Shown: positions 16,887 through 46,950 of the stretch, piece by piece
Layout of the letters: each line of letters opens with the position of its first letter
Position numbering within the stretch: position 1 is the stretch's first letter
Assembly (NCBI GenBank): GCA_023145615.1
Contig: JAGLDK010000008.1
Span: 9,837-73,836 of the forward strand
Direction: 5' to 3'
Length of the DNA: 64,000 nt
Source of the DNA: Ichthyobacteriaceae bacterium
GTDB taxonomy: Bacteria; Bacteroidota; Bacteroidia; Flavobacteriales; JADGDT01
Notes under the pieces: generated by a model
The model's database searches: none
What the model was told of the DNA's origin: nothing
The model's input: the letters and a program-made list of their open reading frames with translations, nothing else
Program-made: the position numbers and the translations under genes

Positions 16887-18242
16887 TTAATCCTTTTTTA
16901 ATATTCTTTTTAATTGAGTGGTTGATATTCCTTTAGTTCTAGGTAAATAATCTACATCACAATAATCTTTCAAAAAATCAAATTCACCTTTCCAATCATC
17001 TCCCATTACAAAAACATCTATATTGTATTTTTTAACATTATCTATCTTCTGATTCCAATTTTTTTCGGGTATTACCTTATGTACATAACTTAATGACTCA
17101 AGCAATTCTTTTCTTTTTTCGTAACTATGGATACAAGTTTTTCCTTTTTCTAAATTAAATTCATCAGTTGATAAGCCAACTATTAATTTAGTACCGTAGC
17201 TTTTTGCACGTCTAAGAATTTCTAAATGACCATAATGTAATAAATCAAAAGTTCCATAAGTTAAAATAACTTTTTCTCTTTGAATAACTAGATCTTCAAA
17301 ATCAATATCAATTATACCTGTTTTATCTAAAAAAGCCTTTTTAACCACTTTTAAAAGTGGCAATCTGTTTATAACTTTATCAGGAACTATATCTAAAATC
17401 ATATCTAACGATTTTTTACCTTCTAAAACTACACTATTATCACTATCACTATAAAAACCTTTACCCATTAACAAACCTAATGTTCTGTTTCTACTTAAAT
17501 CGTTTAACGATGTTAAACCTAAGTCTCCAAAACCACAACTCAAATTTATTGTGCTTTCATCTCCTCCTAAACTTTTAAGTAATACTATAATTTCGTTAAA
17601 TGATTTTGTAAGAACTAAAAAACGAGTATTTGCCGAATTGTATTTAGCATCAGTATAACCCACTAAAATAGCATATATATTTTTCAATACACTTAGCACT
17701 TCCACCCCAGTTATATCAGTTGTTGTATCAATAAAAACATTAGTACCTTTTATTATTTCAATAATTGATTTATGATTTTCTCTTTTACTATATCCAAGTG
17801 TAAATATCGAATTTGAACCATGAATTAATTCACTTGCAAAAGTTGGACCTTTTAAGGTTATTACATCACAATTTGGTAATACTTGTTTTACATAATCAAC
17901 AATATTAATTTCTTTTGAAATTAAACCTTTAGCCAAATTAACAATCAATGTTCCATCTGAAATAAACATTTTATTGTTTTCAAAAAACTCACCTATAGAA
18001 GAAGAAGGAATTGCAATAAATATAATATCAAAATCTTTTAGTTTTGATAAATCTGAGCTAGCATATAATTTATCGCTTAAAAAGGTATTTGGAAATACTT
18101 TTGTGTTTTTATTTTTATTATTTATTTCATCTACCTTAAAATAATCTGTAGAAAACAGACATACAGCATTATTTTTATTAATTGTTAAACTATTACCTAA
18201 CGCAGTACCGAATTGTCCGGCTCCAATAATTGCTATCTTCAT
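16887..18242 (-). CDS. Fusion protein: NAD(P)H-dependent glycerol-3-phosphate dehydrogenase (GpsA-like) + glycerol-3-phosphate cytidylyltransferase (TagD-like)
   Basis: 451 aa. Residues 1-~320 are GpsA-like (MKIAIIGAGQFGTALG, ..LKGPTFASE.., ..GVEVLSVLKNIYAI.., ..GDLGLTS..SRNR). Residues ~322-451 are TagD-like (ILTYGTFDLLHYGHLEILRRAK.., ..VFVMGDDWKGEFDFL.., RTKGISTT). Confidence 0.8.
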   Translation of the reverse strand: MKIAIIGAGQFGTALGNSLTINKNNAVCLFSTDYFKVDEINNKNKNTKVFPNTFLSDKLYASSDLSKLKDFDIIFIAIPSSSIGEFFENNKMFISDGTLIVNLAKGLISKEINIVDYVKQVLPNCDVITLKGPTFASELIHGSNSIFTLGYSKRENHKSIIEIIKGTNVFIDTTTDITGVEVLSVLKNIYAILVGYTDAKYNSANTRFLVLTKSFNEIIVLLKSLGGDESTINLSCGFGDLGLTSLNDLSRNRTLGLLMGKGFYSDSDNSVVLEGKKSLDMILDIVPDKVINRLPLLKVVKKAFLDKTGIIDIDFEDLVIQREKVILTYGTFDLLHYGHLEILRRAKSYGTKLIVGLSTDEFNLEKGKTCIHSYEKRKELLESLSYVHKVIPEKNWNQKIDNVKKYNIDVFVMGDDWKGEFDFLKDYCDVDYLPRTKGISTTQLKRILKKD

Positions 18243-22813: not shown

Positions 22814-23214
22814 ATCCTAACCAGATTTAAAGTTCTACTGAATTAGGTAAGCTTTGGGAGCTTAAGTTGTTGTGGTTTTTACTGAAAAATACAATTTAAG
22901 TAATACTTAATTTTTAACTATTAATGGTTAATTAACAATTTTTACAAACTCGTTAAAATTTGCAAACAAATATTTTACATTAATACTAAATAGAGGTTTT
23001 AAATATATAGGGGAGGGAATTTTATTACTACTTTTTTTCAATACTCTAAATTACATAATTTATCAGTTTATCTACTAAACAACCGATTTTATGATTGTTT
23101 TAATCGTTCAATTTACCACTCGTTATTAACAAAATAAAATAAAAGATAAATTAGCTTTTATTTTGAATAAGTACCTTCAATTAAAAGCTAATTTATTATT
23201 ATTAATTAAACAAT

Positions 23215-25116: not shown

Positions 25117-25486
25117 AATTAATTATAGGTTAATACAAATTACAAGTTGTTTTATAAAAAAGTGGCTCTTAAAACAGTTATTGATTATACATTTTATAAC
25201 TAAAAAATCTAAAACTGTGGTTCTATCACAAATACTATACTTTTTTTATAATAGTTGAGCTATTAAAACTTTAAATAACTCTGTTTTGTTAGTTAAATAT
25301 AGGCTGATGATAAAATTGACTTTATAGCTAAAGTCAACAATTACAATTCAGTAATAAATCATAAATTTCAACATAAAAAAAACGCAAATACAGCACCGAT
25401 TTTAAATAACCATAATGCAGTATTTACGTATTTTTTTTGTTCATTTTTAAAGTAAGTTAATGCTCTAAAAATGTATTTTATTTATT

Positions 25487-27652: not shown

Positions 27653-28093
27653 TTTATGATTATTATTAGGTTATGTCATTTACATTAAATTTATTATCAT
27701 TTTAAAACACTCCATTAAATTAATAATGTGCTATTAGTAGAATGCAATATTCTATTAAATCAACAATAAATTATTACCATAAATAAGAAGAGATTTACTA
27801 ATAAAAGGGGAAGGGATTTACTTATTTTTAAATACTTACATTAAAGTAATAAGTAATATGGTTAAAACAAAAACATTTCGATTAGCGCCCAACTTTTATG
27901 TAAAAACTGAAATATTACAACAGCATCTAAATCGTAATACAACAAAAACACTTTCGAAATAAAAAGCACTCCGAAAAACATAATTACATATATATGAGTA
28001 AATATTAAATTAAAATCTAAAAATGACTTAGAACTCATGAAAATATTTTTTTTTAGTTTACAACACTTATATTTTGTGTTAAAAATAATTATA

Positions 28094-31093: not shown

Positions 31094-31990
31094 TCAAGTG
31101 TTTTTAAAAACCTGATATAAAGGCAAGTAAACATTACCAAAAAACATAGCTTTTGTTTTTTTATACAATTTGCAAGTAGCAGAATTGTTGGTTGTGTAAG
31201 CTAATTTGTTTATTATCGTTTTAATTTCGAATATTTTTTTGTATTTATATTTAGTATACTTGTTAGCGTTGTCTAAAAAATATCTATACTTATCATATCT
31301 AACAGTATTTTCTGTTTGTTGAGAAATACTTAATTCGTGCAAACGATATACACTTAAGTAATCATCTAAAAACTTAACTTTTTTATTTCCGGCTACTAAT
31401 ACCATTAAAGTTTGATCTCCAGCAAAAACCTTAAAAGCCCAATCAGGCACATTGGTTAATATTGAATTAGATCGGAATAGAAAAGTTGATGTATGAGTGA
31501 AATTTCGAATTAAATAATCTGATAATTCGAAACTTAATTTATTTTTTTGATAAAAGGATCTGTTATCTACTTCTTGCAAGTTGTTATCTCCCGTTTTTGT
31601 ATAATACTTTGATGTAACTATGCTATAAGACTCATTATTATCTAAAAAATCAACTTGTTTTTGAAGTTTTAATGGGTCAATCCAATAATCATCACCTTCG
31701 CATGTTGCAATATATTTTGGATTTGCCAATTGGCATTTCTGAAGATTATAAAACCAATTACCTATTGATCCTTTATTTTTATCAAAATTTTCAAGTTCAA
31801 TTATATCAGGATATTTATTGGCATATTTTTTACAAACTTCAACAGTATTATCTGGAGAGTTATCAACTGTAATGTAAAGTTTAAATTTAAAATTGGTTTT
31901 CTGATTCAACACTCCTTCTATAGCTTCTGATATGTAATTTTCATGATTATACGTTATCATTGAAACTGCAACAACTATATTATCTTCCAT
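31094..31990 (-). CDS. Glycosyltransferase family 2
   Basis: 298 aa with the GT-A N-terminus VSMITYNHENYISEAIEGVLNQ and a DNSPDNT (DxD-like) motif. Confidence 0.85.
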   Translation of the reverse strand: MEDNIVVAVSMITYNHENYISEAIEGVLNQKTNFKFKLYITVDNSPDNTVEVCKKYANKYPDIIELENFDKNKGSIGNWFYNLQKCQLANPKYIATCEGDDYWIDPLKLQKQVDFLDNNESYSIVTSKYYTKTGDNNLQEVDNRSFYQKNKLSFELSDYLIRNFTHTSTFLFRSNSILTNVPDWAFKVFAGDQTLMVLVAGNKKVKFLDDYLSVYRLHELSISQQTENTVRYDKYRYFLDNANKYTKYKYKKIFEIKTIINKLAYTTNNSATCKLYKKTKAMFFGNVYLPLYQVFKNT

Positions 31991-32096
31991 TATTCTGAGT
32001 TAAAAACATTAACAATATCTATTTAATTAAATTTACATTAAATAGTATTTTTACAACCTTAACACCGAGCAACTGAAACAAAACACTCACTAACAA

Positions 32097-33539
32097 CTAC
32101 TTACTAAACTGAGTAAAATCATCTTTCATTGAAAGCATAAACTTTTTTTCGAATAAATAACTTAAACCTACATACAATATACCAGCAACAGCAATTTGAA
32201 TAAACAGTGTAATTGTAATTCCTAAATTAATTACTTGCCCCAAGTAATATGTTGCAACCATCATTATAATTGATATAATAAGTATTTTATAAATTTGTTT
32301 TACTTGTTTAATAATACCATAATTAAAAATATGCCCCGAATAAATAGAATTTAATATTACAGATGGAAAGGAAACAAAAGCAAAATGACTTAACAACATT
32401 ATAGTTATACCATATTTATAACTAAAATATATAGACAATGCCATTATAATTTTTTTTATAATTTCGAGTTTCAAAAACAAGTCGGATCTACCTTTTGCAT
32501 TAAGTGCTTGCAAATTCATTACACTTATTGGTAACATTGCACCCATAAGCATTAAAACCCTTAAATAAGGCACACTCTCTATCCACTTATCGGTTAATAA
32601 AAAAATTATTAAATTATCGGCAACTGCTAAAATTCCAAACATAACAGGCAATGTTACAAATGCCAACATTTTTAAACCTCTTGAAAATACTTTTACAAAT
32701 CTTTCGTTATCATCCTGTACTTTCGATAAAACAGGATAAACAATTTTACCAATAACACCTACAGTATTACTTATTGTAAGCAAATAAAACTCATTACTTC
32801 TGTTATAAAATCCCAAAGCAGCTGCGCTAAATAATTTACCAATTATAAGGTTATACAGGTTTGTAAAAACAGTATTCAATATACCCGACATTAGTAGTTT
32901 AGAACCAAAACCAAATAAGCCTTTTAACGAGTTTAAGCTAAATTTTAATTGAGGGTACCATTTACTAAACACAAACATAAATACACTCTTAAAAAAAGTA
33001 GCAACTATTATTTGAATAACTAACGCCATAACTCCGTAGCCATTATAAGCCATATAAACTCCTACAAAACCCGAAATTATTGATGATAATAAAGTAACCT
33101 TTGCTTGTGTTTTAAAATCTAATTCTTTCGATAATAAATTGTTAGGAACTGCGGCAAAAGAACCTATTAATAAATTGAATGATATTATTTTAGTAATTAA
33201 CACTAATTGAGGTTCGTTATAAAATTCGGCAATAAAATTTGCACTAAAAAATAACAACGCAGTCATTAAAGCACCTAAGAGTAGGTTTAGGTAAAAAACA
33301 GAAGATTCGTCAATATGAGTTATTTTTTTACGTTGTATAAGAGCAGCTCCAAAACCGCTATCAATAATGGTTTGTCCTAAAGCAGAAAATACAGCAATCA
33401 TTCCTATCAAACCAAATTCTTTTGGCGATAATATACGGGCAAGTATTAACGAAACTATAAAAGTTACTAACTGTCTTCCAAACTTTTCCATTATTGTCCA
33501 GAATACTCCTAATAATGCTTTTTGCCTAAGATTTTCCAA
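32097..33539 (-). CDS. wzx: Wzx-type oligosaccharide flippase (MOP/PST family)
   Basis: 480 aa with about 12-14 TM segments and the PST-family N-terminus ..FWTIMEKFGRQLVTFIVSLILARILSPKEFGLIG. Confidence 0.85.
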   Translation of the reverse strand: MENLRQKALLGVFWTIMEKFGRQLVTFIVSLILARILSPKEFGLIGMIAVFSALGQTIIDSGFGAALIQRKKITHIDESSVFYLNLLLGALMTALLFFSANFIAEFYNEPQLVLITKIISFNLLIGSFAAVPNNLLSKELDFKTQAKVTLLSSIISGFVGVYMAYNGYGVMALVIQIIVATFFKSVFMFVFSKWYPQLKFSLNSLKGLFGFGSKLLMSGILNTVFTNLYNLIIGKLFSAAALGFYNRSNEFYLLTISNTVGVIGKIVYPVLSKVQDDNERFVKVFSRGLKMLAFVTLPVMFGILAVADNLIIFLLTDKWIESVPYLRVLMLMGAMLPISVMNLQALNAKGRSDLFLKLEIIKKIIMALSIYFSYKYGITIMLLSHFAFVSFPSVILNSIYSGHIFNYGIIKQVKQIYKILIISIIMMVATYYLGQVINLGITITLFIQIAVAGILYVGLSYLFEKKFMLSMKDDFTQFSK

Positions 33540-33638
33540 ATATCATATTTTATAAGCACTAATTAATATAAGTTAAAACACTACTTTATAAAGTTTAATT
33601 TATTGTATTGTTTTATACTTATTAACTAGCCTTGTAAT

Positions 33639-34865
33639 TTATAGCTCATTAATTTTACTAAGCACGCGCTGAGTATTATTGAAATCATTATACTTAAAAA
33701 ACAATTTATAAATATCTTTATATCTCTCATCTACCGATTCGGAAGAAGGATAATTACTGTTTTGTAAAGTCTTAATTAAGTCGTTAAACGAATAACAAAT
33801 TTCTCCTGGAAATACATCCTTTAAATCATACACAAATCCATGTTGACTATTTACATAATGATCGTAATCATAAGCAAAAGAAATAACTGTTTTATTCAAA
33901 TATAAAGCATCAATATATGTGCTTGAATAATCCGAAATTAAAATATCCGACTCCCTAGTAAGTATATTCATATTAGAAATCATACTTGTTGATAAATCTA
34001 TAATATACTCATTGTCAATTATTTTTTTGAAAATATCAATTGGCGGATTAAAAGGATGATACCTAATTCCTAGTAAATAATTATTATCTTTTAAAAACTT
34101 CTTTAATATTGATAATTCTTCATTTGTAAAGTTATAATAATAGCCACCCACAGTACTATCTTTGTACGTTGGAGCATACATAATTAATTTTTTATCACCT
34201 TTTATAACTCTTAATAAACTAAGTTCTTTTTTTAGTTCATCTGGAAGATTCTTATCTTCTAACTTTAAAAAATCATTTCTTGGCAATCCGGTTTCCCAAA
34301 AATTCTCATCAGGAGTATTAAAAAACACTTTCTTTAAAATTTCTTTATTATCGGTTGATGAAGCTATAATAGAATGATGCTTCATTTCTTTCTCTAACTC
34401 CTTATTCATAAAACCAACTTCAGGATTAGAAAGATCTTTAATTATTATTCCATGCCAAAGGTTTACTATATTTCTATATTCGGGATGAGTAAAACGGAGT
34501 TTAATACTTTTAAATTCATAAGATATTGAATGTTGAATAATTATTTTCTTAGATTTTAAAAGATACCAATACGCAACCAACGACGTCATTTTTACCTGCT
34601 TAACACTTTTAGAGTTTCCTAAAGAAAGTTTTTTATTCCTGAATAATACAATTTTTTGTATATCATGGTTATTCTTAACACCCTCGAATAAGGCTAACGA
34701 ATTATCACTTAAATCTCCATCTCCCAAAAAGTAAACAGGAAAAATCCAGTAATCTTTTCTTTTTTCAAAAAAGCCATCTAACAGATTAAATACTACATTT
34801 AATAATAATCGTACACCCCAAACAAAACGATTAAAAATAGCTGATATAATTTTTGTTATTTTCAT
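33639..34865 (-). CDS. CDP-glycerol glycerophosphotransferase family protein (TagB/TagF-like)
   Basis: 408 aa with TagF-family C-terminal motifs (..YAPTYKD.., ..LISDYSSTYIDALYLNKTVISFAYDYDHY..). Confidence 0.8.
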   Translation of the reverse strand: MKITKIISAIFNRFVWGVRLLLNVVFNLLDGFFEKRKDYWIFPVYFLGDGDLSDNSLALFEGVKNNHDIQKIVLFRNKKLSLGNSKSVKQVKMTSLVAYWYLLKSKKIIIQHSISYEFKSIKLRFTHPEYRNIVNLWHGIIIKDLSNPEVGFMNKELEKEMKHHSIIASSTDNKEILKKVFFNTPDENFWETGLPRNDFLKLEDKNLPDELKKELSLLRVIKGDKKLIMYAPTYKDSTVGGYYYNFTNEELSILKKFLKDNNYLLGIRYHPFNPPIDIFKKIIDNEYIIDLSTSMISNMNILTRESDILISDYSSTYIDALYLNKTVISFAYDYDHYVNSQHGFVYDLKDVFPGEICYSFNDLIKTLQNSNYPSSESVDERYKDIYKLFFKYNDFNNTQRVLSKINEL

Positions 34866-34894
34866 AAAACAATGTCAAAATTTTTATTAATAGA

Positions 34895-35030
34895 TTATTT
34901 ATTCTCCTGCTTTAATTTTTCACCTTCCATATTATATACTTCTATTTTTAATTCTGAAAAGATAATTTCATACCTATCCCTTAAGTGTACTAAAATGTAT
35001 TTTTACAGGTATCGCATGCCACTAAAAGTC
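34895..35030 (-). pseudogene. Decayed 3'-terminal fragment of a second TagD/ECT-like cytidylyltransferase gene
   Basis: Minus-strand translation of 34972-34895 gives YEIIFSELKIEVYNMEGEKLKQENK*. The intact gene ends ..YDIIFSELRREVQNMEEWKLKQS* (35184-35261). 16 of 22 residues are identical, and the nucleotide similarity is visible by eye. An in-frame stop lies upstream (35003-35005) and there is no start. Confidence 0.55.
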
Positions 35031-35183
35031 AATCAAAAAGTATCAAGATCAGTTTAAAAATATAGAGCACGCAAATTTATTCGCTATGCTCTTAATTTAT
35101 CATTGATACAACCAAAAAAATAAAAACTATATTTTGGTTGCTATAAAACTTATTGTATTATGTGGATTATGCCTTACTTATAG

Positions 35184-35672
35184 TTACGATTGTTTTAATT
35201 TCCATTCTTCCATATTTTGCACTTCTCTGCGTAATTCTGAAAAAATAATATCGTACGAATTCTTTATAATATCACGTTTAGTACTAGTTGTACTTACAGT
35301 TCCGGTATATGGCAGATATACAACTTCCTTACCTTCTTGATTTTGCATCCAATCTAAACCCTCTAAGTATTTATCTTTCCAATCATCGCCAATTGTTACA
35401 ACATCAATCCCTAGTTCTTCAAGTTGATTAATATCTGTAAGTTTTTCTTGTTTTACAGCTTTATAAACTCCTTTCATTGATTGTATAATTCTTAACCTTT
35501 GCTCGAAAGGAATAACCGGAGGCATACCTTTATAATCAGCTATTAACTCGTCAGTACTTACTCCAACAATAAGTTTATCACCATATTCTGCCGATTTTTC
35601 AATAATATTAACATGCCCTATATGAAATAAGTCCCAAGTTCCTGATGTGTAAACAATTCTATCTTTTTTCAT
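35184..35672 (-). CDS. Cytidylyltransferase family protein (TagD / ethanolamine-phosphate cytidylyltransferase-like)
   Basis: 162 aa with HxGH-type motif SGTWDLFHIGH, plus GVSTDE and IGDDWKDKY. The substrate is not assignable from sequence. Confidence 0.8.
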   Translation of the reverse strand: MKKDRIVYTSGTWDLFHIGHVNIIEKSAEYGDKLIVGVSTDELIADYKGMPPVIPFEQRLRIIQSMKGVYKAVKQEKLTDINQLEELGIDVVTIGDDWKDKYLEGLDWMQNQEGKEVVYLPYTGTVSTTSTKRDIIKNSYDIIFSELRREVQNMEEWKLKQS

Positions 35673-36735
35673 TACGTAAATTATTTTGAATTTCTACTAT
35701 TTTATTAACTACTATATCTAATTCTCTTTTATTTTGAAGTCCAATATGCGACACTCTTAAAAGCTCACTACTTCCACTTGGCATTACATATATATTTTCT
35801 TTATTAAGCTGGTTACATACATTTTTACTGTTTTCAACATAAAATCCAGTAACACACGACGAAGGACTTTCAGCACTTAAAGTCCAATTATTATTTTTAC
35901 ACAATTGTCTGAAATACAATGCGTTTTCCTTTACTTTATTTAACGTTTTTTCTGCTCCTTCTTTCTTCAATTTCAACAACCTTGCATGTAGCTGATAAAA
36001 CAAAACTGTAGCCGGACTAAATGGTGTTTGACCTCTTTGCAAATTGCTTAGATTTTCTTCCATGTCTAAATAATAGTTATTACTACTAAATCCTTGCTTT
36101 AATGCTTTTTCGGCAATAGCTACAAACGATAATCCTGGAGGAATATTTAATCCTTTTTGACTACTAACAACAGCCATATCAATATCCCAGTTTTTCATAC
36201 TGAAATCATCAGTCATAAAAGAACTAATTGCATCAACAACCAATCGTACATTGTTATTTTTACAAGTGGTTGATATTTTATCTAAATCATATAATTGCCC
36301 CGATGATGTTTCGTGATGCTGACACAACAACACATCGTAATTGCCTTTATCTATAATATCATTTAATTTTGTATAATTAATATCTTTACCAAATACAACT
36401 TTAAACTCGTCGGCATTTATATTATGATATTTGCATAAATCTCTCCATCTGTTTCCAAAAGTCCCTCCATTAATAACCAAAACTTTATTGAAATTTGAAA
36501 CATAATTAACAACCACCGATTCCATTGCCGCAGTACCTGCCGATGTATAGGTAATAACTTTACCATCTTTTACATCTAACAATTCCTTTAATATTTCCTC
36601 GTTTTCGTTAACCATTTTCGAAAATTTACTTGTGCGCATATATGGAATTTGTTTAGATCCTAATGCCAAAATATCATCTTCAATTAAACCTGGAAATGCA
36701 AAGGTTAGCATTTCATTATCTGAATTTTCAAACAT
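35659..36735 (-). CDS. Class-V (AGXT/serine-pyruvate-type) PLP aminotransferase
   Basis: 358 aa with the PLP-lysine context VVSSQKGLNIPPGLSFVAI that is typical of class-V aminotransferases. It overlaps the next gene by 14 nt. Confidence 0.8.
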   Translation of the reverse strand: MFENSDNEMLTFAFPGLIEDDILALGSKQIPYMRTSKFSKMVNENEEILKELLDVKDGKVITYTSAGTAAMESVVVNYVSNFNKVLVINGGTFGNRWRDLCKYHNINADEFKVVFGKDINYTKLNDIIDKGNYDVLLCQHHETSSGQLYDLDKISTTCKNNNVRLVVDAISSFMTDDFSMKNWDIDMAVVSSQKGLNIPPGLSFVAIAEKALKQGFSSNNYYLDMEENLSNLQRGQTPFSPATVLFYQLHARLLKLKKEGAEKTLNKVKENALYFRQLCKNNNWTLSAESPSSCVTGFYVENSKNVCNQLNKENIYVMPSGSSELLRVSHIGLQNKRELDIVVNKIVEIQNNLRNEKR

Positions 36736-37186
36736 AATCTTCTCCTCTCATTGTTAATACTGGCGACATTCCCTCTTTAAATCCAAATTTTGCATAAAAT
36801 GGTTCGCTACCAGGAATGGCAGTTAAAAACATTTTCATAAAACCTCCTTCTATACTTTTTTTGGTAGTTAAATCAAGTAATCCCTTTCCAACTCCTAATT
36901 TTCTATAATCAGGATTAACCATAACATCAAGTATGTAATACATGTAAACATTATCGGTTAAAAGTCTTGCGTAACCAATTAACTCATTGTTTTTTAATGG
37001 ATTTCGTGCAGTAATTGCAACAGTATTTTCAAGCGAAATCTTTTCTTTTTCAACAGTTCGTAATGAATAATGAAAAACATTTTCGGGTGGAAATTTATCT
37101 GATGTAGATTTTTTCATTTTTTCCATCAAATTAAAAAGTTCGTCAGTATTTACCTCATCATTAAATTTATAGGTTATTTTATTCAT
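36728..37186 (-). CDS. GNAT family N-acetyltransferase
   Basis: 152 aa with acetyl-CoA motif A (YRKLGVGKGLL). Confidence 0.75.
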   Translation of the reverse strand: MNKITYKFNDEVNTDELFNLMEKMKKSTSDKFPPENVFHYSLRTVEKEKISLENTVAITARNPLKNNELIGYARLLTDNVYMYYILDVMVNPDYRKLGVGKGLLDLTTKKSIEGGFMKMFLTAIPGSEPFYAKFGFKEGMSPVLTMRGEDYV

Positions 37187-37188
37187 AA

Positions 37189-38457
37189 TTAATTTATCAT
37201 ATCAGGTGCAAAAACAGGAATATCATGAACTTCAGATACATCAAATCTTTCAACATGACTATCATCTATAAATATTGATTTATTTCCTTTTATATATTTC
37301 GATTTTTTATCTTTTCTATCTAAATGAATAACCTCATCAAACAAAGTACTTAACCTATATTTTTTCAACGATTCGTTAATATCAAAAGCATGTCGGGTAA
37401 TTAAAGTAACTTTTTTACCTTCGTTTATATACTGATAAAGTTTAGCTACCAAAGAAGTATTAACCTTGCCTTCAATTATTAAACAGTCATCAAAATCAAC
37501 ATAAACCTTATCGAAATCGTAATCCATATTTACTACAACTCCTAATGCCCTATCAATTTCAATACTAGCTTTATTCTCAACAATACTAACATCAAAATCA
37601 AAAGAATCGAAAATACTCAGTAGTGCAAAATTCACTCCTTTATATCTGTATAACAACGATGATCCTCCCATACGAGACGCAACCTCTAACAACGATAATT
37701 TATTATTTATATCTCTTTTAACTTGATAAAACCAAGCTCCACGAAACTCCATTTTAGAATTTATTGTGCGTGCAATTTCCTCAAATTCAAATCGTTCGGT
37801 TACATCTAACGAAATTGTATTAACCGATATTCCTGTTCGTGTACGCCTACGAGGACGTGGACCAGAAAACATCAGTTCTCCTTTTTTATTAGTAAAACAA
37901 TCAACTGTATATTCCTCTCCTGGTAAGTAATCCGATATAATACAATCACCCCATTCCTCTATATGAGATATTCCCTCATTTAAAGTTTTTATAACCTTTG
38001 CACCTCTCGATCCGTACCCAACATTGGGTTTTATAAATACCGGAAAATTTTCAACATCAATAATATTATCATACACTCTTGGCACATTCATTACCGAATT
38101 TAACAGAGTATATGTTAGTTTTTTTGAAGAACATATTCTACTAGTTTCAACCGACGATGCAATAACTTTGCAATTAAATTCTTGCTCTAATGGTTTTAAA
38201 AAAGAAATTGCAATATCCATAGCCGGATATATTGCTTCAATTTTATTATCTGAAATTATTTTTTTAAAATGCTCTACAAAATCAACGTCATTAATATTGG
38301 GCACATTTCCAATATAATTTTCGTAAACAAACTTACCGTGATCGTTAACACTACTAGCGCCAAATAACTCAACATGACGACTATGCTTTAACGAACGATG
38401 TATTTCTAAACCAACTTCCGATCCGCAAGGAAAAACTAAAACTTTAATTTTATTCAT
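37189..38457 (-). CDS. ATP-grasp ligase fused to a C-terminal HAD-like phosphatase module
   Basis: 422 aa. The first ~310 aa follow an ATP-grasp pattern (..FPVFIKPNVGYGSRGAKVI.., ..EYTVDCF.., ..LLEVASRMGGS). The last ~105 aa carry HAD-like motif I KVYVDFDDCLI and motif IV-like SIFIDDS. Confidence 0.7.
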   Translation of the reverse strand: MNKIKVLVFPCGSEVGLEIHRSLKHSRHVELFGASSVNDHGKFVYENYIGNVPNINDVDFVEHFKKIISDNKIEAIYPAMDIAISFLKPLEQEFNCKVIASSVETSRICSSKKLTYTLLNSVMNVPRVYDNIIDVENFPVFIKPNVGYGSRGAKVIKTLNEGISHIEEWGDCIISDYLPGEEYTVDCFTNKKGELMFSGPRPRRRTRTGISVNTISLDVTERFEFEEIARTINSKMEFRGAWFYQVKRDINNKLSLLEVASRMGGSSLLYRYKGVNFALLSIFDSFDFDVSIVENKASIEIDRALGVVVNMDYDFDKVYVDFDDCLIIEGKVNTSLVAKLYQYINEGKKVTLITRHAFDINESLKKYRLSTLFDEVIHLDRKDKKSKYIKGNKSIFIDDSHVERFDVSEVHDIPVFAPDMIN

Positions 38458-39565
38458 TGGTAATTAATTTAACTATGTAACTAATTTCTTCTTCTGATAG
38501 GTTTGGATATATTGGCAAACAAATTACCTTATCAGCTATTTTAACTGCATTTTGTAAATTATTTCTATTAGCCGATGGCAATCCTTTATAAGTTGGAAAA
38601 TCGCTTATAAGCGGATAAAAATATCTTCTTCCATACACATTATGATCCTTTAATTTTTCATAAAGCTCATCTCTACTAAGTGTGTAATCGCTATTAACAT
38701 AAATCGGGAAATATGCATAATTATGCTTAACTCCTTCAATATCTTTTAAACAACTAATACCTTCAACACCCTTAAATTTTTCTTTGTATTTATATGCAAT
38801 ATCCTTACGTTGTTGAATTTGCTTATCAATTGTGTTAAGCTGTAATAATCCGTATGCCGATTGTAGTTCATTCATTTTAGCATTTATACCTGGTGCTACC
38901 ACAGTGGTTTCATCTGCAAATCCAAAATTCTTTAAAAAGTCAATTCGTTTTTTTGTTCCCTCATCATGACATATAATTGCCCCACCTTCTATTGTATTAA
39001 ATGTTTTGGTGGCATGGAAACTTAATATTGATAAATCTCCATAATTTAGCACACTCTGTCCGTTAATTTCAACTCCAAAAGCATGTGCCGCATCATAAAT
39101 AATTTTTAAGCCATAGGTGTCGGCAATACGTTCTAGTTTTTCAACCTCAACCGGATTTCCATAAACATGTACCGGAACAATTGCAGTAGTTTTTGGAGTA
39201 ATTAAACTCTCTATTTTATCTATATCTAAATTTCCGTAAACGGGATCTATATCGCAAAACACCGGAGTTATTCCATTCCAATGCAAAGCATGAGTTGTTG
39301 CAACAAAAGTATATGGAGTTGTAATTACCTCTCCCGAAATTCTAAGTGTTTGCAAAGCAGTAATTAAAGCAAGAGTTCCGTTAGAAAATAACGACACATA
39401 TTTTACCCCAAGATGTTTTGCTAATTTATCCTCAAATTCTTGATGATATTTACCATTATTAGTCAACCATTTATTTTCCCAAATATCCTCTAGTTTCTCT
39501 ACAAATTCTCCTAAATCTGGCATTGTTGGTTGAGTTACCAGTATCGGTTTTTCTCTTTTCTCCAT
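38450..39565 (-). CDS. DegT/DnrJ/EryC1/StrS family NDP-sugar aminotransferase
   Basis: 371 aa with typical family features (..SNGTLALITALQ.., ..SFHATKTFNTIEGG..). Confidence 0.9.
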   Translation of the reverse strand: MEKREKPILVTQPTMPDLGEFVEKLEDIWENKWLTNNGKYHQEFEDKLAKHLGVKYVSLFSNGTLALITALQTLRISGEVITTPYTFVATTHALHWNGITPVFCDIDPVYGNLDIDKIESLITPKTTAIVPVHVYGNPVEVEKLERIADTYGLKIIYDAAHAFGVEINGQSVLNYGDLSILSFHATKTFNTIEGGAIICHDEGTKKRIDFLKNFGFADETTVVAPGINAKMNELQSAYGLLQLNTIDKQIQQRKDIAYKYKEKFKGVEGISCLKDIEGVKHNYAYFPIYVNSDYTLSRDELYEKLKDHNVYGRRYFYPLISDFPTYKGLPSANRNNLQNAVKIADKVICLPIYPNLSEEEISYIVKLITNE

Positions 39566-39603
39566 TTGTATATAGTTGTTTCTTATTAGTTGAATCTAAA
39601 TTC

Positions 39604-40986
39604 TTATTTTACTTTCTTAAATACATTATACTTATTATTGATACATTCAATAAAATCATAATTATCTTTAAGTTTTTTAGTTACTAAAGAATCTTCTACA
39701 GCATAAAAAATTAAATAACTATCTTTTTCTATTTGATCTAATACCGTATTGTAAGCTCTTGTTCGGGGAAAAGTGTAACCTAATTTTTTATAATTTGCCG
39801 ATCTATAATTGCCATAATAATATTGGGCAGGACTAATTTTTAAATAAACTTTACTGTTTTTTGGCACAACATCTACTAATACCTTACTTACTGCAATATC
39901 TCTATTATACTTATGTATTGTGTTGTTATATTTACTATACCAACCGTAAGCTCCAAAAACAATAACCGTATAAATTGTTAAGTATTTTAAAACCTTATTT
40001 ATACTGAATTTATATACTATAATACTGTAATTTAATTTATTTAATGCAATGGCTAGTATAAATATCGACCATGGTATTATTGCATAGAAGTAATACAAAA
40101 TAACTGAAAAATAAATACTTAGCATGGTACTTAAAAAAGCCAAAATAAAAAATACTATGTATTTATCAATCTTAATAAATTTTAGTAAATAGAAGCTAAA
40201 AGGAACAAAAATAAATACCGTTGGAATTAGCACAAAACTTGCTAAGTACATAAGAACACTTTGTCCTCCTGTAATTTTTATAGCACCTTCTACTCCCATA
40301 ATTCCAACCAAACGCTTAAGATAATCCCAAAAATCTATTTGATTAAAATGTATTACATACATTAATATTAATACAGTAAAGAAACCTGATTTAAACAGTG
40401 AAAAATTTTTAATAATTCTTTTGTCATCATCCATTACAACCCAATAAAAAATTGGAATTGCAAAAGCTAATGCATACTGCTTTGTATAAAAAGACAGGAA
40501 TAGAAACACGCCCGATAAAAAATATTTTTTCTTGAATAAAAACAATGTTGTTAATAGCATAAACAACAACATTAAAGGTTCTAAATAAATACTTATACCA
40601 CCTAAAAACAATGAGTAAAGCATGAAAAGTATAATCGTAAATGTTTTTATTTGTTGTTTTATTTTCAATAACGTAAGTACCTTATAAAACACAGCAACAC
40701 TTATAAGCTGTATTGCAAATACTACTAAAAAAAAATATTGAGTTTCAATTTCGGATGTTAATAAATAAGGTATTCCATAAAAATAAATTGCCAACGGATT
40801 ATATTCTACCGCCATTTTGTAATAAGGAATTCCATCTGCAAAAACATCTCTTGCAATAGAAATGTAATACGATCCATCTACCCCAACATTTGGATAGTTT
40901 AAAGAAAGCAACACCATTAAAATTACAAATATCAACCACACTAATTGTGACACTTTATTTGTTTTACTATCAAAAAAAGTTTTCAT
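39604..40986 (-). CDS. GT-C-like polytopic membrane glycosyltransferase candidate (ArnT/PMT_2-like)
   Basis: 460 aa with many hydrophobic segments, a first-loop motif VDGSYYISIARDV reminiscent of the DExxY loop of GT-C enzymes, and a ~100-aa soluble C-terminus. It lies directly downstream of an ArnC/GtrB-type GT2. Confidence 0.5.
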   Translation of the reverse strand: MKTFFDSKTNKVSQLVWLIFVILMVLLSLNYPNVGVDGSYYISIARDVFADGIPYYKMAVEYNPLAIYFYGIPYLLTSEIETQYFFLVVFAIQLISVAVFYKVLTLLKIKQQIKTFTIILFMLYSLFLGGISIYLEPLMLLFMLLTTLFLFKKKYFLSGVFLFLSFYTKQYALAFAIPIFYWVVMDDDKRIIKNFSLFKSGFFTVLILMYVIHFNQIDFWDYLKRLVGIMGVEGAIKITGGQSVLMYLASFVLIPTVFIFVPFSFYLLKFIKIDKYIVFFILAFLSTMLSIYFSVILYYFYAIIPWSIFILAIALNKLNYSIIVYKFSINKVLKYLTIYTVIVFGAYGWYSKYNNTIHKYNRDIAVSKVLVDVVPKNSKVYLKISPAQYYYGNYRSANYKKLGYTFPRTRAYNTVLDQIEKDSYLIFYAVEDSLVTKKLKDNYDFIECINNKYNVFKKVK

Positions 40987-40999
40987 GTTGGTTAGTAGT

Positions 41000-41941
41000 T
41001 TATTTTTTATTTTTAATGATAAAACCAGGACGATCTTTTACTTCATCATAAATACGCCAAATATATTCGGCTACAATTCCTAATGAAAAAAGTATTAATC
41101 CGCTGAAAAAAGAGAAGATAACAGCTATTGAAGTCCATTCTGGTAAATTTTCATCCCAATATTCTGTATTTCCGAATAATTTCATATAAATATATATTGC
41201 AATTATTACTATTGATGTTGCAATAAAGAAAAAACCTATATTGGTTATCATTTTTATTGGCCAAGTTGAACTAGAAAAAAAAGCATCTCTAAACAACTTT
41301 ATTTTTTTACTAAAAGACCACCTCGATTTTTCATTTATACCCTGCATACGTTGGTACGACAATAAATAAGGAGAGAATCCTAAGCGTAAAACTTCAATTA
41401 TACTAACTGTATTTATATGATGAATTTTGTTGTTTAATATATCAACAACCTCTCTATCTAAAAAAAAAGTATCTGCACCTCCATTCGGAAATTTTATGTC
41501 TGATGTATAGTTCATAACCTTATAAAAAAGATTAGAAAACACATCACTAAAAAAACCATCATCGCGAGATTCTCTATGAGGAATAATTATTTTCTCGCCT
41601 TGTTGCCAAACCTTATACATATCAACTATTGTTTGATATGGCATTTGTTCATCATCATGAATTGGCAAAGCACAATTACCATTACTAACCTGTAATCCTG
41701 CAAATGTGGCATAATGAGCTGTGTAATTTTTACTTAATTGGTAAGCGTGTACATTACTATTTTCATGCTCAAGTTTTTTTGCAACCTCATAAGAATCATC
41801 TTTTGATCCATCATCAATAATGATAAATTCAAAAGGAATATTATTCTTATTAAGTAGCTTAGTTATATCGTTATAATTTTTAACAATTCGTTGGCTACTA
41901 TAATATGACAATAGTATTATGCTTAATAAATTGTTATTCAT
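41000..41941 (-). CDS. Polyprenyl-phosphate glycosyltransferase (GT2; ArnC/GtrB/DPM1-type)
   Basis: 313 aa with a GT-A domain (IILLSYYSS.., IIIDDGSKDDS), two C-terminal TM helices and the signature tail LGIVAEYIWRIYDEVKDRPGFII. Confidence 0.8.
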   Translation of the reverse strand: MNNNLLSIILLSYYSSQRIVKNYNDITKLLNKNNIPFEFIIIDDGSKDDSYEVAKKLEHENSNVHAYQLSKNYTAHYATFAGLQVSNGNCALPIHDDEQMPYQTIVDMYKVWQQGEKIIIPHRESRDDGFFSDVFSNLFYKVMNYTSDIKFPNGGADTFFLDREVVDILNNKIHHINTVSIIEVLRLGFSPYLLSYQRMQGINEKSRWSFSKKIKLFRDAFFSSSTWPIKMITNIGFFFIATSIVIIAIYIYMKLFGNTEYWDENLPEWTSIAVIFSFFSGLILFSLGIVAEYIWRIYDEVKDRPGFIIKNKK

Positions 41942-42006
41942 AGCTCATTAAATTTGGTTATAAGAAAAATACTGAGATTTATAAAATCGTTATTATCAAA
42001 GAACCT

Positions 42007-43173
42007 TTAATTTCTATAAAACTCAATCACGGCATTTATTACTCTATCAATTTCTGCACTTTTTAAATCGTAATACATTGGCAATCTTAATAATCTACTT
42101 GTATAAAGTTCCGATTGTGGTAAATCAACCTTGCTATTACTTTTTAAGTAAAACGGACTTTCATGAAGACATAAATAATGAAATACACTGTGTATATTTT
42201 TCTGTTTTAAAAAATTAATCAACTCAGTTCTTTCATCAACCGACTTGGTAATTAAGTAAAACATATGTCCGTTGCTTGTGGCATAATCTGGAATAAATGG
42301 CAGTTTAATTTTGTTTTCAATTAACTTAAGTCCATTATAATATTTATTCCAATTCCAAATACGTTTGGCTTGTATTTTGTCAATGTTTTCGAGTTGTGCA
42401 TACAAAAAACCTGCCACTGTTTCCGAAGGTAAAAATGATGATCCTGTATCAACCCAAGTATATTTATCAATTTCTCCTCTAAAAAAAGAAGCTCTATTTG
42501 TTCCTTTTTCCCAAATAATTTCGGCACGTTCAATTAGTTCGTCATCATTTACAACAAGTAAACCTCCTTCTCCCGAAATAACATTTTTTGTTTCATGAAA
42601 AGAGAAAGTTCCTAAATGCCCAATGCCTCCAAGTGGTTGTCCTTTATAAAAGCTTTCAACTGCCTGAGCAGAATCTTCAACAACCTTAATATTATATTTT
42701 TTAGATAAAGCCATAACCTTATCCATATCAACTGCAACTCCTGCGTAATGAACCACAACAATAGCTTTAGTTTTACTAGTTATTAATTCTTCTATTTTAT
42801 TAACATCAATATTTGGTGTTTCCACCTCCGAATCGGCAAATACAATTTTAGCACCTTGTCTGAAAAAAGCTAATGCCGTTGACACAAAAGTGTAAGAAGG
42901 AATTATAACCTCATCTTCAGGTTTAATGTCTAACAACATTGCACACATTTCTAAAGCAGTGGTGCACGATGTGGTTAATAATGTTTTTTTGAAACCATAT
43001 CTTTCTTCGAAAAAATGCTGGCATTGTTTTGTATAAATTCCATTACCCGATAATTGTCCGGAACTAACTGCTTTTTGAATATAATTAGTTTCGTTTCCGG
43101 TTAAATACGGTTTATTAAATGGTATTTCTTTAAATGTTTCTTTATTCTTTAAAGTGTCCGATTTAGTATTCAT
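42007..43173 (-). CDS. WecE/ArnB-like NDP-4-keto-sugar aminotransferase (DegT family)
   Basis: The ORF track gives 42007..43311. The family-typical N-terminus (..IPFNKPYLTGNETNYIQKAV..SGNGIYTKQC..) begins right after the internal ATG at 43173, so I take that as the start. The upstream 46 codons look non-coding. Confidence 0.85.
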   Translation of the reverse strand: MNTKSDTLKNKETFKEIPFNKPYLTGNETNYIQKAVSSGQLSGNGIYTKQCQHFFEERYGFKKTLLTTSCTTALEMCAMLLDIKPEDEVIIPSYTFVSTALAFFRQGAKIVFADSEVETPNIDVNKIEELITSKTKAIVVVHYAGVAVDMDKVMALSKKYNIKVVEDSAQAVESFYKGQPLGGIGHLGTFSFHETKNVISGEGGLLVVNDDELIERAEIIWEKGTNRASFFRGEIDKYTWVDTGSSFLPSETVAGFLYAQLENIDKIQAKRIWNWNKYYNGLKLIENKIKLPFIPDYATSNGHMFYLITKSVDERTELINFLKQKNIHSVFHYLCLHESPFYLKSNSKVDLPQSELYTSRLLRLPMYYDLKSAEIDRVINAVIEFYRN

Positions 43174-43366
43174 GATTACTCTATCGTAGGTAATATTTTT
43201 ATATTTTAAACTCGAATTATTATTTTTACAATTCGATAAAATTGATTTATTAACAACTACTTTCATAAACAAGTGTTTTATACTATATCGAAATATATTG
43301 AACCAATACACTCAATAAAGAAATGATAATTTAGTTTGGCTATAGATATTTAAGATATTTAAAACC

Positions 43367-44527
43367 TTAAATATCAACCCCTAATACATTGGATGGATTT
43401 ATTATTTGTTTTTTTAGTGGATGAGAATAGACTACTACTCCAACACGTTTTCCTGATTCATCTAACGATTCGTAATCGCCAACAGAAAGCAACATCATAG
43501 ACTTTACAATACAATTATTACTGTACAAGCTATCTTTATAAATCTTATCTTTTTCTGGTTTTGAATAAACAAAATAAACTCCCGAATATTCGTTTTTACT
43601 TGGTGGGTAATTAATCGGTGTAAATTTATTGAATGCAACATCAATAACACCTTTTACAAAATCGTATCCTGTAGAAAGCTGAACTAAATCAGACCCTATA
43701 AAATCTCCTCCCATACGGGCTCCTATTTCTACAATATATATTTTATTATCGGCTGTAATTAATATTTCAGAATGTCCTGCTCCATTAACTACGCCTAATG
43801 CACTAAGTGCTTTTTTTATTGTTGAAAAAATATTTTCTTTTAAAACATCAGTAATATTTGCAGGCTGATGATGCTCAATTTCAACAAAATACGGAGTACC
43901 AGTTGTAACCTTATCAGTTACTGCCAACATATAATGTTTTCCTTTAAACGATATTGTTTCTACCGAAAACTCTCGGCCTTTTATAAATTCCTCAACTATA
44001 ACAGTTTCAGAAAATTGAAGAGATTTTTCAATAGCCTTATTTATATCCGAATTTTTATTAACATAAGTAACTCCTCTCGATCCCGAACTATCAGTAGGTT
44101 TAACAACAATAGGCAACTTTAACTTATTATTATAAATATTAAAATCAGGAGTATTACAGGCTGTAAAAAGTGGACACAATAACCCCGATTTGCTTAAAGC
44201 CTTACGCATTTGATATTTATTTGTTGTTAGCAACGATAATTCTACAGGATTACCAACAAGCCCCAATTTATCTGCAACATAATTTACAGTAGGCATTGCC
44301 ATATCAGATGCAATTGAAGTAATTGCATTAATACCAACTTTGGTACAAATTTTTAATATTTCGTTTTTATCAAGTATCGATATAGAATAATAAAAATCAG
44401 CAATATCTTCTACTACGTTTCCTTCTTTCCAAGCAAACACATGAGTTTCGTAACCCAACTCTTTAGCTTTATCAACCAAAGGTTTTTGTAAATAACTTGC
44501 TCCTAAAATTGCTAATTTTTGTTTCAT
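43367..44527 (-). CDS. ATP-grasp domain protein (carboxylate-amine ligase type)
   Basis: 386 aa. It has a pre-ATP-grasp N-terminus KLAILGASYLQKPLV and an ATP-grasp core (..LPIVVKPTDSSGSRGV.., ..EFSVETIS.., ..VEIGARMGGDFI). Confidence 0.75.
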   Translation of the reverse strand: MKQKLAILGASYLQKPLVDKAKELGYETHVFAWKEGNVVEDIADFYYSISILDKNEILKICTKVGINAITSIASDMAMPTVNYVADKLGLVGNPVELSLLTTNKYQMRKALSKSGLLCPLFTACNTPDFNIYNNKLKLPIVVKPTDSSGSRGVTYVNKNSDINKAIEKSLQFSETVIVEEFIKGREFSVETISFKGKHYMLAVTDKVTTGTPYFVEIEHHQPANITDVLKENIFSTIKKALSALGVVNGAGHSEILITADNKIYIVEIGARMGGDFIGSDLVQLSTGYDFVKGVIDVAFNKFTPINYPPSKNEYSGVYFVYSKPEKDKIYKDSLYSNNCIVKSMMLLSVGDYESLDESGKRVGVVVYSHPLKKQIINPSNVLGVDI

Positions 44528-44726
44528 AAAAATCTATATAATAAGTAATAAAACATATTTATTTAGAATTGATTATGTTTGATAGTTCACTTTTAATTTT
44601 GTCATAATATTTAAATTCATAAAAATGATACATTAACAAAATGATAGATCACGCAAAGTTTTAATATAACTATCAATAAATAATACTGAATAAAGCTTTG
44701 CGTGATATATAACTTGAATCTAAGTT

Positions 44727-46073
44727 TTATAATCTTCCGTCAACTAATTTTCTATCAACAAACGATTTTGTATCGAAAATAACAGTATCACTATCTTTCC
44801 ATTTCTTAAAATTAAGTGTTTTAAATTCGTTATGGGCAACTGCTACAATAACCGAAGAATAAACCTCTCCGTTAAGATGATCTAATACATCAATACCGTA
44901 TTCGTGCTTTACTTCCATAGCATTAACCCACGGATCGAAAATATCAACATCCATACCAAATTGTTTTAATTCTTGATAAATATCAACAACTCTAGTATTT
45001 CTTATATCCGGACAATTCTCTTTAAAAGTAACACCTAAAATCAACGATTTTGCACCTTTAATTTGAACTCCTTTATCTATTAATAATTTTACAACCTTAT
45101 TAGCAACGTGCATTCCCATTGAATCATTTACTCGTCGCCCTGATAAAATTACATTTGGATGATATCCTAACGATTTTGCTTTGTGAGCTAAGTAATACGG
45201 ATCAACTCCTATACAATGTCCGCCAACTAAACCTGGCTTAAACGGCAAGAAATTCCACTTTGTACCTGCTGCTGCTAACACATCGTTTGTATCAATATTC
45301 ATTCTTTCAAAAATCAATGATAATTCATTTACAAATGAAATATTAACATCACGCTGAGCATTTTCAATTGCTTTTGATGCCTCAGCAACCTTCATGCTAG
45401 GTGCCTTATGTGTACCTGCTAAAATTATTTTATTATATAAATCATCAACTAAATCTGCAATTTCAGGAGTAGATCCAGAAGTAACCTTTTTAATAGTTGT
45501 AAGCGTATTAACTTTATCTCCCGGATTTATTCGTTCTGGAGAATATCCACAATAAAAGTTATTATTAAACTTCAATCCTGATTTTTTCTCTAAAACCGGC
45601 ACACAATCCTCTTCGGTACATCCAGGATATACAGTAGATTCATAAATAACAATATCTCCTTCAGATAATACACTTCCTACCGTAGCCGATGCGCTTAACA
45701 GTGGTTTTAAATCGGGCGCATTAAAATCATCAATCGGTGTTGGAACAGTTATTATGTACACATTGGCATCCTTAATGTCTTTTAATTTGCTAGACAATAA
45801 CAATCCATCATCCTCAAAGCCATCAATCTGAGCTTCTTCTTTAATTTCATTATCTTTTCCAACAGTTTGAAAAACAAGAGATTCTTTTAATACTGCGTGC
45901 AAATATTCATCTGCAACTTCTAAAGTATCATCATGTCCTTCATTAAGCCTTTTTACTCTTAATTCATTAATATCGAATCCAACTACTGGATACATCTTTG
46001 CAAATTCAACAGCCAAAGGCAATCCAACATATCCTAATCCGATTACTGCAATTTTAAGCTCGTTAACATTCAT
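44727..46073 (-). CDS. NDP-sugar 6-dehydrogenase (TviB/WbpO/WbpA-like UDP-N-acetylhexosamine dehydrogenase)
   Basis: 448 aa with N-terminus KIAVIGLGYVGLPLAVEFAK and the catalytic-Cys context GLVGGHCIGVDPYY. It is the first gene of the minus-strand locus. Confidence 0.9.
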   Translation of the reverse strand: MNVNELKIAVIGLGYVGLPLAVEFAKMYPVVGFDINELRVKRLNEGHDDTLEVADEYLHAVLKESLVFQTVGKDNEIKEEAQIDGFEDDGLLLSSKLKDIKDANVYIITVPTPIDDFNAPDLKPLLSASATVGSVLSEGDIVIYESTVYPGCTEEDCVPVLEKKSGLKFNNNFYCGYSPERINPGDKVNTLTTIKKVTSGSTPEIADLVDDLYNKIILAGTHKAPSMKVAEASKAIENAQRDVNISFVNELSLIFERMNIDTNDVLAAAGTKWNFLPFKPGLVGGHCIGVDPYYLAHKAKSLGYHPNVILSGRRVNDSMGMHVANKVVKLLIDKGVQIKGAKSLILGVTFKENCPDIRNTRVVDIYQELKQFGMDVDIFDPWVNAMEVKHEYGIDVLDHLNGEVYSSVIVAVAHNEFKTLNFKKWKDSDTVIFDTKSFVDRKLVDGRL

Positions 46074-46245
46074 AATTGTAAATAATTAATTTGGTGGTCT
46101 ATTAATTTCTATCATACTAACTATAACTTTATAATTAGGGTATCAATGAAAGTAATTGATGTATTAATTTTATATTTAATACAGAACATAAATCATCTCA
46201 AATCATATAATAATAGTTCTCTAACAAATACCGTGATTTGATAAA

Positions 46246-46293
46246 TAGTTATTATCGTTATAACCTATATAGCGTTTGTAACGATAATAACTA
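46246..46293 (-). promoter_or_regulatory. 15-bp perfect inverted repeat in the leader/upstream region of the polysaccharide locus
   Basis: TAGTTATTATCGTTA (46246-46260) and TAACGATAATAACTA (46279-46293) are exact reverse complements with an 18-nt spacer, 173-220 nt upstream of the first gene start (46073). Confidence 0.4.
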
Positions 46294-46950
46294 ATTTTAA
46301 TATTTTCACTTTATTTTGTCATATAACCATAACGATTAAGATAATACAAATTGTTTTTTACGGTAAAATGGTGGGTACCATCATATAGGTTGTTTTCATA
46401 GCTTCGCTACTTAAAGTCACATAAACTTTAAGTAAAATAGGAAATACGCTCATAATTAAGACAAACAACAAAAGCATAAAAAATATCAGTTTGTTTTTGT
46501 AAAAAATGAAGAGCTGATTAATGAAAATCACTACTATATATTACTTTAAATTTAAGTTTTCTAAGTCAGTAAACATCTACTAAACCTCTTGTTTTCGTTG
46601 AATAAATAGGTAAAGCCGATTTACGTAACCATCAAAAACAACACACCCAAACTATGTGCTTTAAATCGATATAAAAGATTTTACATTCCAATGTATTTTT
46701 AATTATGAGCAGTAAAATTAACAACTAAAAAAACACCATTAAAAACTAATTACTGCATAAAACATTAAACAACAACCTTAAACTTAAACACCTTATAAAC
46801 AGCATACTTAAATATATAGTAAGTTTCATACTGAAACATTAAAAGGAATATTGCATTATATATTTCAATGTAAATGTTGCAATAATTGAAACATTACTTT
46901 ACTTTTAATAAAGAATTACTAATTAGTATATCAACATTAAATAATATATT

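Follow-up and report, generated by a model that had tools for sequence, protein, structure and literature searches.

A probable remnant of a cytidylyltransferase gene end upstream of a TagF-like gene in a flavobacterial surface-polysaccharide locus

The analysed stretch of DNA, referred to here as the window, comprises 64,000 nucleotides of an Ichthyobacteriaceae genome and carries a surface-polysaccharide locus on the minus strand, running from about 46073 down to about 18474. The locus opens with the genes for a UDP-sugar dehydrogenase, an ATP-grasp protein, a DegT protein, a GT2 and a 460-aa membrane protein. These are followed by a second DegT gene, a second ATP-grasp gene and the genes for a GNAT acetyltransferase, a class V aminotransferase and a cytidylyltransferase (CT), after which comes a 318-bp spacer. 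Downstream of the spacer lie the genes for a TagF-like protein, Wzx, another GT2, a 418-aa protein, a GT1 and a hexapeptide transferase, and the locus ends with further transferases and a GpsA-CT fusion. TonB/SusC-type receptors are encoded on its flanks. By ribosomal protein S1, the host stood closest to an Ichthyobacteriaceae MAG (88% identity), the values for other Flavobacteriales being 70-75%; this MAG, the nearest genome available, lacks the window's TagF. The genes surrounding the spacer are given below, L numbers denoting related loci.

37189 to 39565, minus strand: ATP-grasp (37189-38457) and DegT aminotransferase (38450-39565), the left backbone flanking the variable slot
36728 to 37186, minus strand: GNAT acetyltransferase, first gene of a three-gene module
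35659 to 36735, minus strand: class V aminotransferase of the three-gene module, also found beside the CT in L001, L006, L007 and L010-L013
35184 to 35672, minus strand: intact CT, 162 aa, TagD/ethanolamine-phosphate-CT-like (Pfam PF01467; PDB matches 3elb and 1coz)
33639 to 34865, minus strand: TagF-like CDP-alcohol phosphotransferase (PF04464), downstream of the relic
31094 to 33539, minus strand: Wzx flippase (32097-33539) and GT2 (31094-31990), the right backbone flanking the slot

The intact CT had more than 1000 homologues. Its match to the NCBIfam model of glycerol-3-phosphate cytidylyltransferase (TIGR01518, TagD) was partial and reached 80.5 bits, below the cut-off of 165.4. Judged from its sequence, the CT, and with it the parent of the relic described below, is best regarded as a member of the PF01467 family that falls under the TagD equivalog cut-off. 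At the far end of the locus, a 451-aa protein (16887-18242, minus strand) fuses GpsA, an NAD-dependent glycerol-3-phosphate dehydrogenase, to a CT domain; it is likely a one-protein CDP-glycerol synthase and hence a second source of CDP-alcohol for the locus. Other long gaps, of 370-877 bp, occur in and around the locus (22814-23214, 25117-25486, 27653-28093 and 46074-46950). No relics of the locus's own genes were found in these long gaps, and none of the 13 intergenic gaps that the locus has besides the spacer contained a paralogous relic.

The spacer between the CT stop and the TagF-like start was divided into the following elements.

34984 to 35183, minus strand: filler of 200 bp from the intact CT stop to the relic, unrelated to the CT, to the rest of the window and to the related loci
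35109 to 35140, minus strand: weaker A/U-rich hairpin, CAACCAAAA...UUUUGGUUG (dG -8.2, z = -2.5)
35055 to 35092, minus strand: terminator-like element, with a hairpin at 35064-35092 (stem of 12 bp interrupted by a single bulge, loop of 4 nt), then AUAUUUUUA
34895 to 34983, minus strand: relic of the CT 3' end, with homology over 34908-34983 and the frame open to a TAA at 34895-34897, corresponding to CT residues ~134-162
34866 to 34894, minus strand: gap of 29 nt from the relic stop to the TagF-like ATG, with the geometry of a native CT-to-TagF junction

Positions 34908-34983 (minus strand) constitute a diverged copy of the 3' end of the intact CT gene at 35191-35266, with a DNA identity of 74-76% and, according to the codon table, 16 identical residues among the 22 aligned. 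An independent repeat search recovered the same pair as a direct repeat of 76 nt with 74% identity and a spacing of 283 nt. The minus-strand translation of 34895-34972 reads YEIIFSELKIEVYNMEGEKLKQENK up to its stop codon, and the intact CT terminates in NSYDIIFSELRREVQNMEEWKLKQS (also quoted as SYDIIFSELRREVQNMEEWKLKQS). Both this translation and the 16/22 identity had been put forward in the initial annotation of the region and were reproduced. The nucleotide match, which had been drawn by eye, was borne out by local DNA alignment of the spacer to the CT gene, which scored 55, compared to a mean of 23.0 (sd 2.7) and a maximum of 36 for 500 dinucleotide shuffles. In a tblastn search, CT residues 136-161 matched the spacer with 61.5% identity, and no CT sequence N-terminal of residue 136 was found in the spacer at a word size of 2. 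The homology between the relic and the CT ends abruptly at both edges. The flanks of the two repeat copies were unrelated, the 47 nt downstream (p = 0.68) and the 69 nt upstream (p = 0.97) aligning no better than shuffled sequence, and the faint similarity that had been proposed to continue beyond the relic was thus not supported. The counterpart of the relic in the intact protein, residues ~134-162, is a C-terminal tail specific to its clade. Two plus-strand open reading frames, 34872-35057 and 35134-35340, share the string CFNF...NSEKIISY because both read the repeat in antisense, as had been recognised from the outset, and neither of them matched Pfam.

The relic has no start codon, and the break in the frame that had been reported upstream of it is present in the form of an in-frame stop at 35003-35005. 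The spacer contains no minus-strand open reading frame of at least 20 aa, and its sole in-frame ATG leads to 11 residues. When residue conservation was counted in an alignment of 119 CT homologues, the two most conserved residues of the tail, R (119/119) and W (112/119), were found to be changed in the relic to I and E, respectively. The relic retained clade-specific F, S, M and L residues that are rare among these homologues. Among the tails of 120 CT homologues, those scoring best against the relic belonged to the window's CT and to relatives sharing 70-77% identity with it, and relic-like tails were confined to this narrow clade. The stretch combines in-frame, co-linear similarity with the loss of the start and most of the gene, changes at invariant positions and the syntenic place of the orthologue. 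It is probably what is left, in non-functional form, of the final ~28 codons of a CT gene that formerly abutted the TagF-like gene; the similarity, the decay and the syntenic place all agree with its original reading as a decayed CT 3' end.

The 200-bp filler that separates the relic from the intact CT matched neither other parts of the window nor 20 related loci nor PLSDB plasmids. It was likewise without a match in Rfam, and its hairpin had no exact match in JGI metagenomes. One alignment of the filler, to 39632-39669 (38 nt, 79%), was judged to be due to chance, the target being an A/T-rich coding sequence. The terminator-like hairpin at 35064-35092 was predicted to fold with a dG of -13.1 kcal/mol (z = -3.7), and only one of 200 shuffles folded as well. 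It lies 92 nt past the CT stop, mid-way in what would otherwise be one long operon, and was missed by a simple consensus terminator scan because of its bulge. A Bacteroidota -7-type motif, TAAATTTG (TAnnTTTG), lies in its loop at 35072-35079. The putative terminator hairpin would be in keeping with the filler having once lain behind the final gene of a unit.

The relic is placed at the native CT/TagF junction by seven related loci (L001, L006, L007, L010, L011, L013 and L014), each with an intact CT from the relic's clade 0-57 nt upstream of the TagF homologue. The closest relatives of the window's TagF, 53-54% identical, are encoded in a tight cassette of GNAT, aminotransferase, CT and TagF genes (L001, which is a Lentimicrobiaceae MAG, L006, L007, L010 and L011), in which TagF begins directly at the CT stop or overlapping it. 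In L013 and L014, which encode the closest CT relatives, the TagF homologue follows at 57 nt and 31 nt, respectively. On this comparison of gene order, the window's TagF appears to have been coupled originally to a CT of which the relic is the tail, and the intact CT together with 200 bp of unrelated DNA appears to be displaced from the junction. The earlier suggestion that the TagF side once had its own CT directly upstream is upheld by the seven related loci and by the 29 nt that separate the relic stop from the window's TagF start.

The four-gene cassette (GNAT, class V aminotransferase, TagD/ECT-like CT and TagF-like protein) recurred as a conserved, tightly packed unit in six or more loci from metagenomes or MAGs. 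Its coordinates are 33639-37186 (minus strand) in the window, 3860-7130 in L001, 3455-6740 in L007, 5490-8710 in L010 and 3258-5576 in L013. L012 also carries the GNAT, aminotransferase and CT genes as a trio, but after a spacer of 116 bp it continues with Wzx and, in place of TagF, a LicD-type transferase. The best PDB relative of the cassette aminotransferase was the unnamed structure 3f0h. We found no paper describing either the cassette or the putative product of the trio, and the literature on serinol phosphate, N-acetylserinol and CDP-serinol yielded only papers on Campylobacter glucuronamide, none of them on the cassette. As a guess, the head group activated by the cassette might be a CDP-linked N-acetylated amino-alcohol phosphate. 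The nearest relatives of the cassette (window 33639-37186) came from the Lentimicrobiaceae MAG and marine metagenomes, and the host housekeeping genes (window 13430-15199 was compared) were of Flavobacteriales, Ichthyobacteriaceae-like affiliation. This difference implies a horizontal spread of the cassette, although its GC3 is fully host-like.

The gene order DegT, ATP-grasp, slot, TagF, Wzx and GT2 was common to the window and five further loci (L008, L009, L095, L096 and L097), in which the orthologues of these five window proteins were 32-45% identical. In the window, this recurrent backbone spans 31094-39565, and its ATP-grasp protein is of the ATPgrasp_Ter type. The slot was empty in L008, where there is a gap of only 92 bp. 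It was occupied in L009 and L097 by a PF01467-Ppm (PEP-mutase) fusion with Ppd (phosphonopyruvate decarboxylase) and an Fe-ADH, and in L095 by a fusion of a CT with an oxidoreductase (GFO/MocA). L096 carries no module upstream of TagF and has an IspD-SDR fusion downstream of it. Loci with both flanks in common thus differ in gene content at precisely this point. Given that the modules differ or are absent in the five backbone loci, the seam lies at a real hot spot for module exchange, with activation module and transferase exchanged independently of each other. No relics were found upstream of the CT-less TagF homologues in L008 and L009. L009 has a long inverted repeat, GGGGGGTATCCACTT ... 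AAGTGGATACCCCCC, on either side of ~200 bp at 5690-5930. It is located at this boundary of the slot, where 336 bp separate the phosphonate module from TagF, and may be a small mobile or REP-like element.

The initial annotation had placed a module boundary at the spacer, and the five backbone loci with differing or absent modules beside TagF argue for it. The block that was said to have been joined there, 35184-46073, proved too large, since the second DegT gene and the ATP-grasp gene (37189-39565) are syntenic with TagF, Wzx and GT2 in the five loci and belong with them. What was exchanged is more likely to have been the trio of GNAT, aminotransferase and CT genes (35184-37186), in full or in part. 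A break in G+C content or codon usage, which had been proposed as a check, was not observed at the seam. GC3 was 0.18-0.22 on either side (0.196 for the CT and 0.205 for TagF), equal to that of housekeeping genes, and the overall difference in G+C across the seam was located in codon positions 1 and 2. The CT remnant, the former upstream CT and the module boundary stand from the first reading of the region, and the block extent does not.

For all four cassette genes, the window was the outgroup to the same set of relatives. The nearest relatives were alike and all distant (47-77% identity), and on these sequences no phylogenetic discordance appeared resolvable between the two sides of the seam. 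The shared relationships of the four genes provide no independent evidence that the two sides had different sources. The nearest DNA match of the relic was the window's own CT (74%), and other available orthologues reached 64-67%. The relic diverged from the intact CT by 26%, and the window's CT diverged from orthologues of another order by 21-24%. Of the 17 nucleotide differences over 22 codons, 10 were at third positions (binomial p = 0.027), and five codons differed only synonymously. This pattern, although it rests on only 17 differences, suggests that the copies diverged in part as functional coding sequences in separate lineages. No IS, integrase, H-repeat or repeat element was found at the joint, including in the plasmid comparison; remnants of mobile elements are common at such joints but need not be present. 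The relic pattern was absent from GTDB genomes in an exact-match scan, the 90% protein clusters contained only sequences of this organism, and three other contigs carrying this TagF were identical across the region.

We consider it probable that the arrangement resulted from recombination at the slot with one illegitimate joint inside a CT gene. Recombination at the activation-module slot upstream of TagF would have joined a segment to the TagF side, and this segment would have comprised a complete CT at its end and ~200 bp of its own downstream DNA with the terminator-like hairpin. The joint itself would have been non-homologous, inside the TagF-linked CT copy and near codon 134. Everything 5' of the joint would have been lost, and the orphan CT tail would then have decayed. 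The layout of intact CT, 200 bp of unrelated DNA, orphan tail and TagF is the product expected of one illegitimate joint inside the CT. A likely mechanism would be homology-facilitated illegitimate recombination, in which a single homologous anchor lay upstream and the illegitimate end at the spacer. Because CT is usually coupled to TagF, retention of the tail may reflect its use as an unstructured A/U-rich leader for starting TagF translation, a role that is plausible from the sequence. We infer the type of recombination, its direction and the reason for the retention of the tail from the observed duplication and its bounds, the decay, the syntenic position and the variability of the slot. 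The flat GC3, the common relatives of the cassette genes and the closeness of the relic to the window's own CT were counted against a foreign origin.

These last observations are equally those that favour a partial duplication in situ, by which the CT or the whole trio would have been tandemly doubled and the downstream copy mostly deleted or overwritten, with no DNA from another lineage involved. The lack of a mobile element also agrees with such an event. However, a tandem duplication predicts an A-X-A-X arrangement, whereas the flanks of the two copies were unrelated and the 200-bp filler had no match in the locus. The third-position excess would be unexpected under neutral decay since the duplication, and relic and CT have diverged no less than the CT and its orthologues from another order. 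We regard duplication in situ as unlikely on these grounds. A fortuitous match between two A/T-rich sequences has a negligible probability. The region has a G+C content of 26-30%, and short A/T-rich matches such as that of the filler to 39632-39669 are common, yet the shuffle test refutes chance similarity, the alignment score lying ~12 sd over the mean. In addition, the match is in-frame and co-linear with a conserved protein tail, was recovered by four different CT queries and occurs at a syntenic position.

Retention of the stretch as a functional element, be it a leader peptide, a small RNA or a promoter or translation-initiation region of TagF, was also considered and appears very improbable. 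The stretch immediately precedes TagF, at a place where related loci couple the translation of CT and TagF, and contains sigma-70-like hexamers. Moreover, the 110 nt before the ATG were less structured than shuffles (z = +1.8), as expected of a Bacteroidota leader. Against a peptide, the spacer offers no minus-strand open reading frame of at least 20 aa, the only in-frame ATG giving the 11 residues mentioned above. Against a structured RNA or leader, there was no Rfam match, and the whole spacer folded no better than shuffles (z = 0.17), with the relic region at z = +1.8. Against a promoter, the sigma-70-type matches in the spacer showed no excess over shuffles (7 versus 5.7 +/- 2.5 expected), and the only TAnnTTTG match, of which 0.2 were expected by chance, is 206 nt upstream, within the hairpin, and agrees with a chance occurrence.

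At the insertion sites of integrative elements, the incoming DNA brings a replacement 3' end for the target gene, and the original end is left behind as a partial direct repeat. The window resembles such sites in the succession of an intact gene, inserted DNA and an orphan 3' end of the same gene in direct orientation. In contrast to them, it contains neither an integrase nor cargo, the insert is only 200 bp long, and the repeats are 74% identical rather than near-identical and consist of a 76-nt protein-coding tail rather than an att core. Homology-facilitated illegitimate recombination, which occurs in transformable bacteria, involves one homologous and one illegitimate joint. It would leave a clean, invisible joint and a truncated resident gene beside the incoming DNA, and its likeness to the arrangement in the window is purely inferred.

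In O-antigen clusters, remnants of genes and anomalous non-coding gaps are an accepted sign that rearrangement has taken place (PMC7685785, PMC3715488). In E. coli, nine serogroups have gene remnants and 14 have non-coding gaps in these clusters (PMC7685785), and in Salmonella, wzy remnants lie between wbaV and wbaU in groups B1 and D1, and an H-repeat remnant marks a recombination junction in group D2 (PMC3715488). The relic is similar to these O-antigen and capsule remnants in being a truncated, non-functional fragment of a pathway gene in an overlong gap of a mosaic locus, at a block junction. It differs from them in that an intact paralogue is located immediately upstream, so that the remnant duplicates the end of its neighbour, in that no IS or H-repeat is found at the junction, and in that the host is an uncultured flavobacterium. 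With regard to the slot, PF01467-Ppm fusions of the Fom1 type cytidylylate hydroxyethylphosphonate, and PF01467-Ppm (Fom1-like) and PntC systems pair with LicD-like transferases in glycan decoration (PMC6697681). An activating nucleotidyltransferase is likewise found beside a transferase in L009, L097 and the window. The window, unlike those systems, contains neither Ppm nor Ppd, its slot being filled by the CT, the aminotransferase and the GNAT acetyltransferase.

A bolder reading, possible but rather doubtful in our estimation, is that the scar marks a 'plug-and-play' slot of interchangeable activation modules in Bacteroidota TagF-family loci, that the trio makes an undescribed CDP-activated N-acetylated amino-alcohol phosphate, which the TagF-like protein would transfer to the polysaccharide, and that the relic has been co-opted as a leader for the initiation of TagF translation. 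The product may, for example, be N-acetyl-serinol phosphate made from dihydroxyacetone phosphate.

The relic is an ordinary scar of past module shuffling and not a new functional element, and it opens no new biological question, since such remnants are well documented in enterobacterial O-antigen clusters. What is new is an example of a remnant in an uncultured flavobacterium that duplicates the end of the adjacent intact gene. In annotation, the 318-bp gap should not be taken for a missed gene, nor the two antisense reading frames for anything but artefacts. For the biology of the locus, the relic is a physical record of polysaccharide-locus diversification, with the exchange joint at codon ~134 of a CT on the edge of the variable slot, and it points to that slot and to a conserved, apparently uncharacterised cassette of GNAT, aminotransferase, CT and TagF genes.
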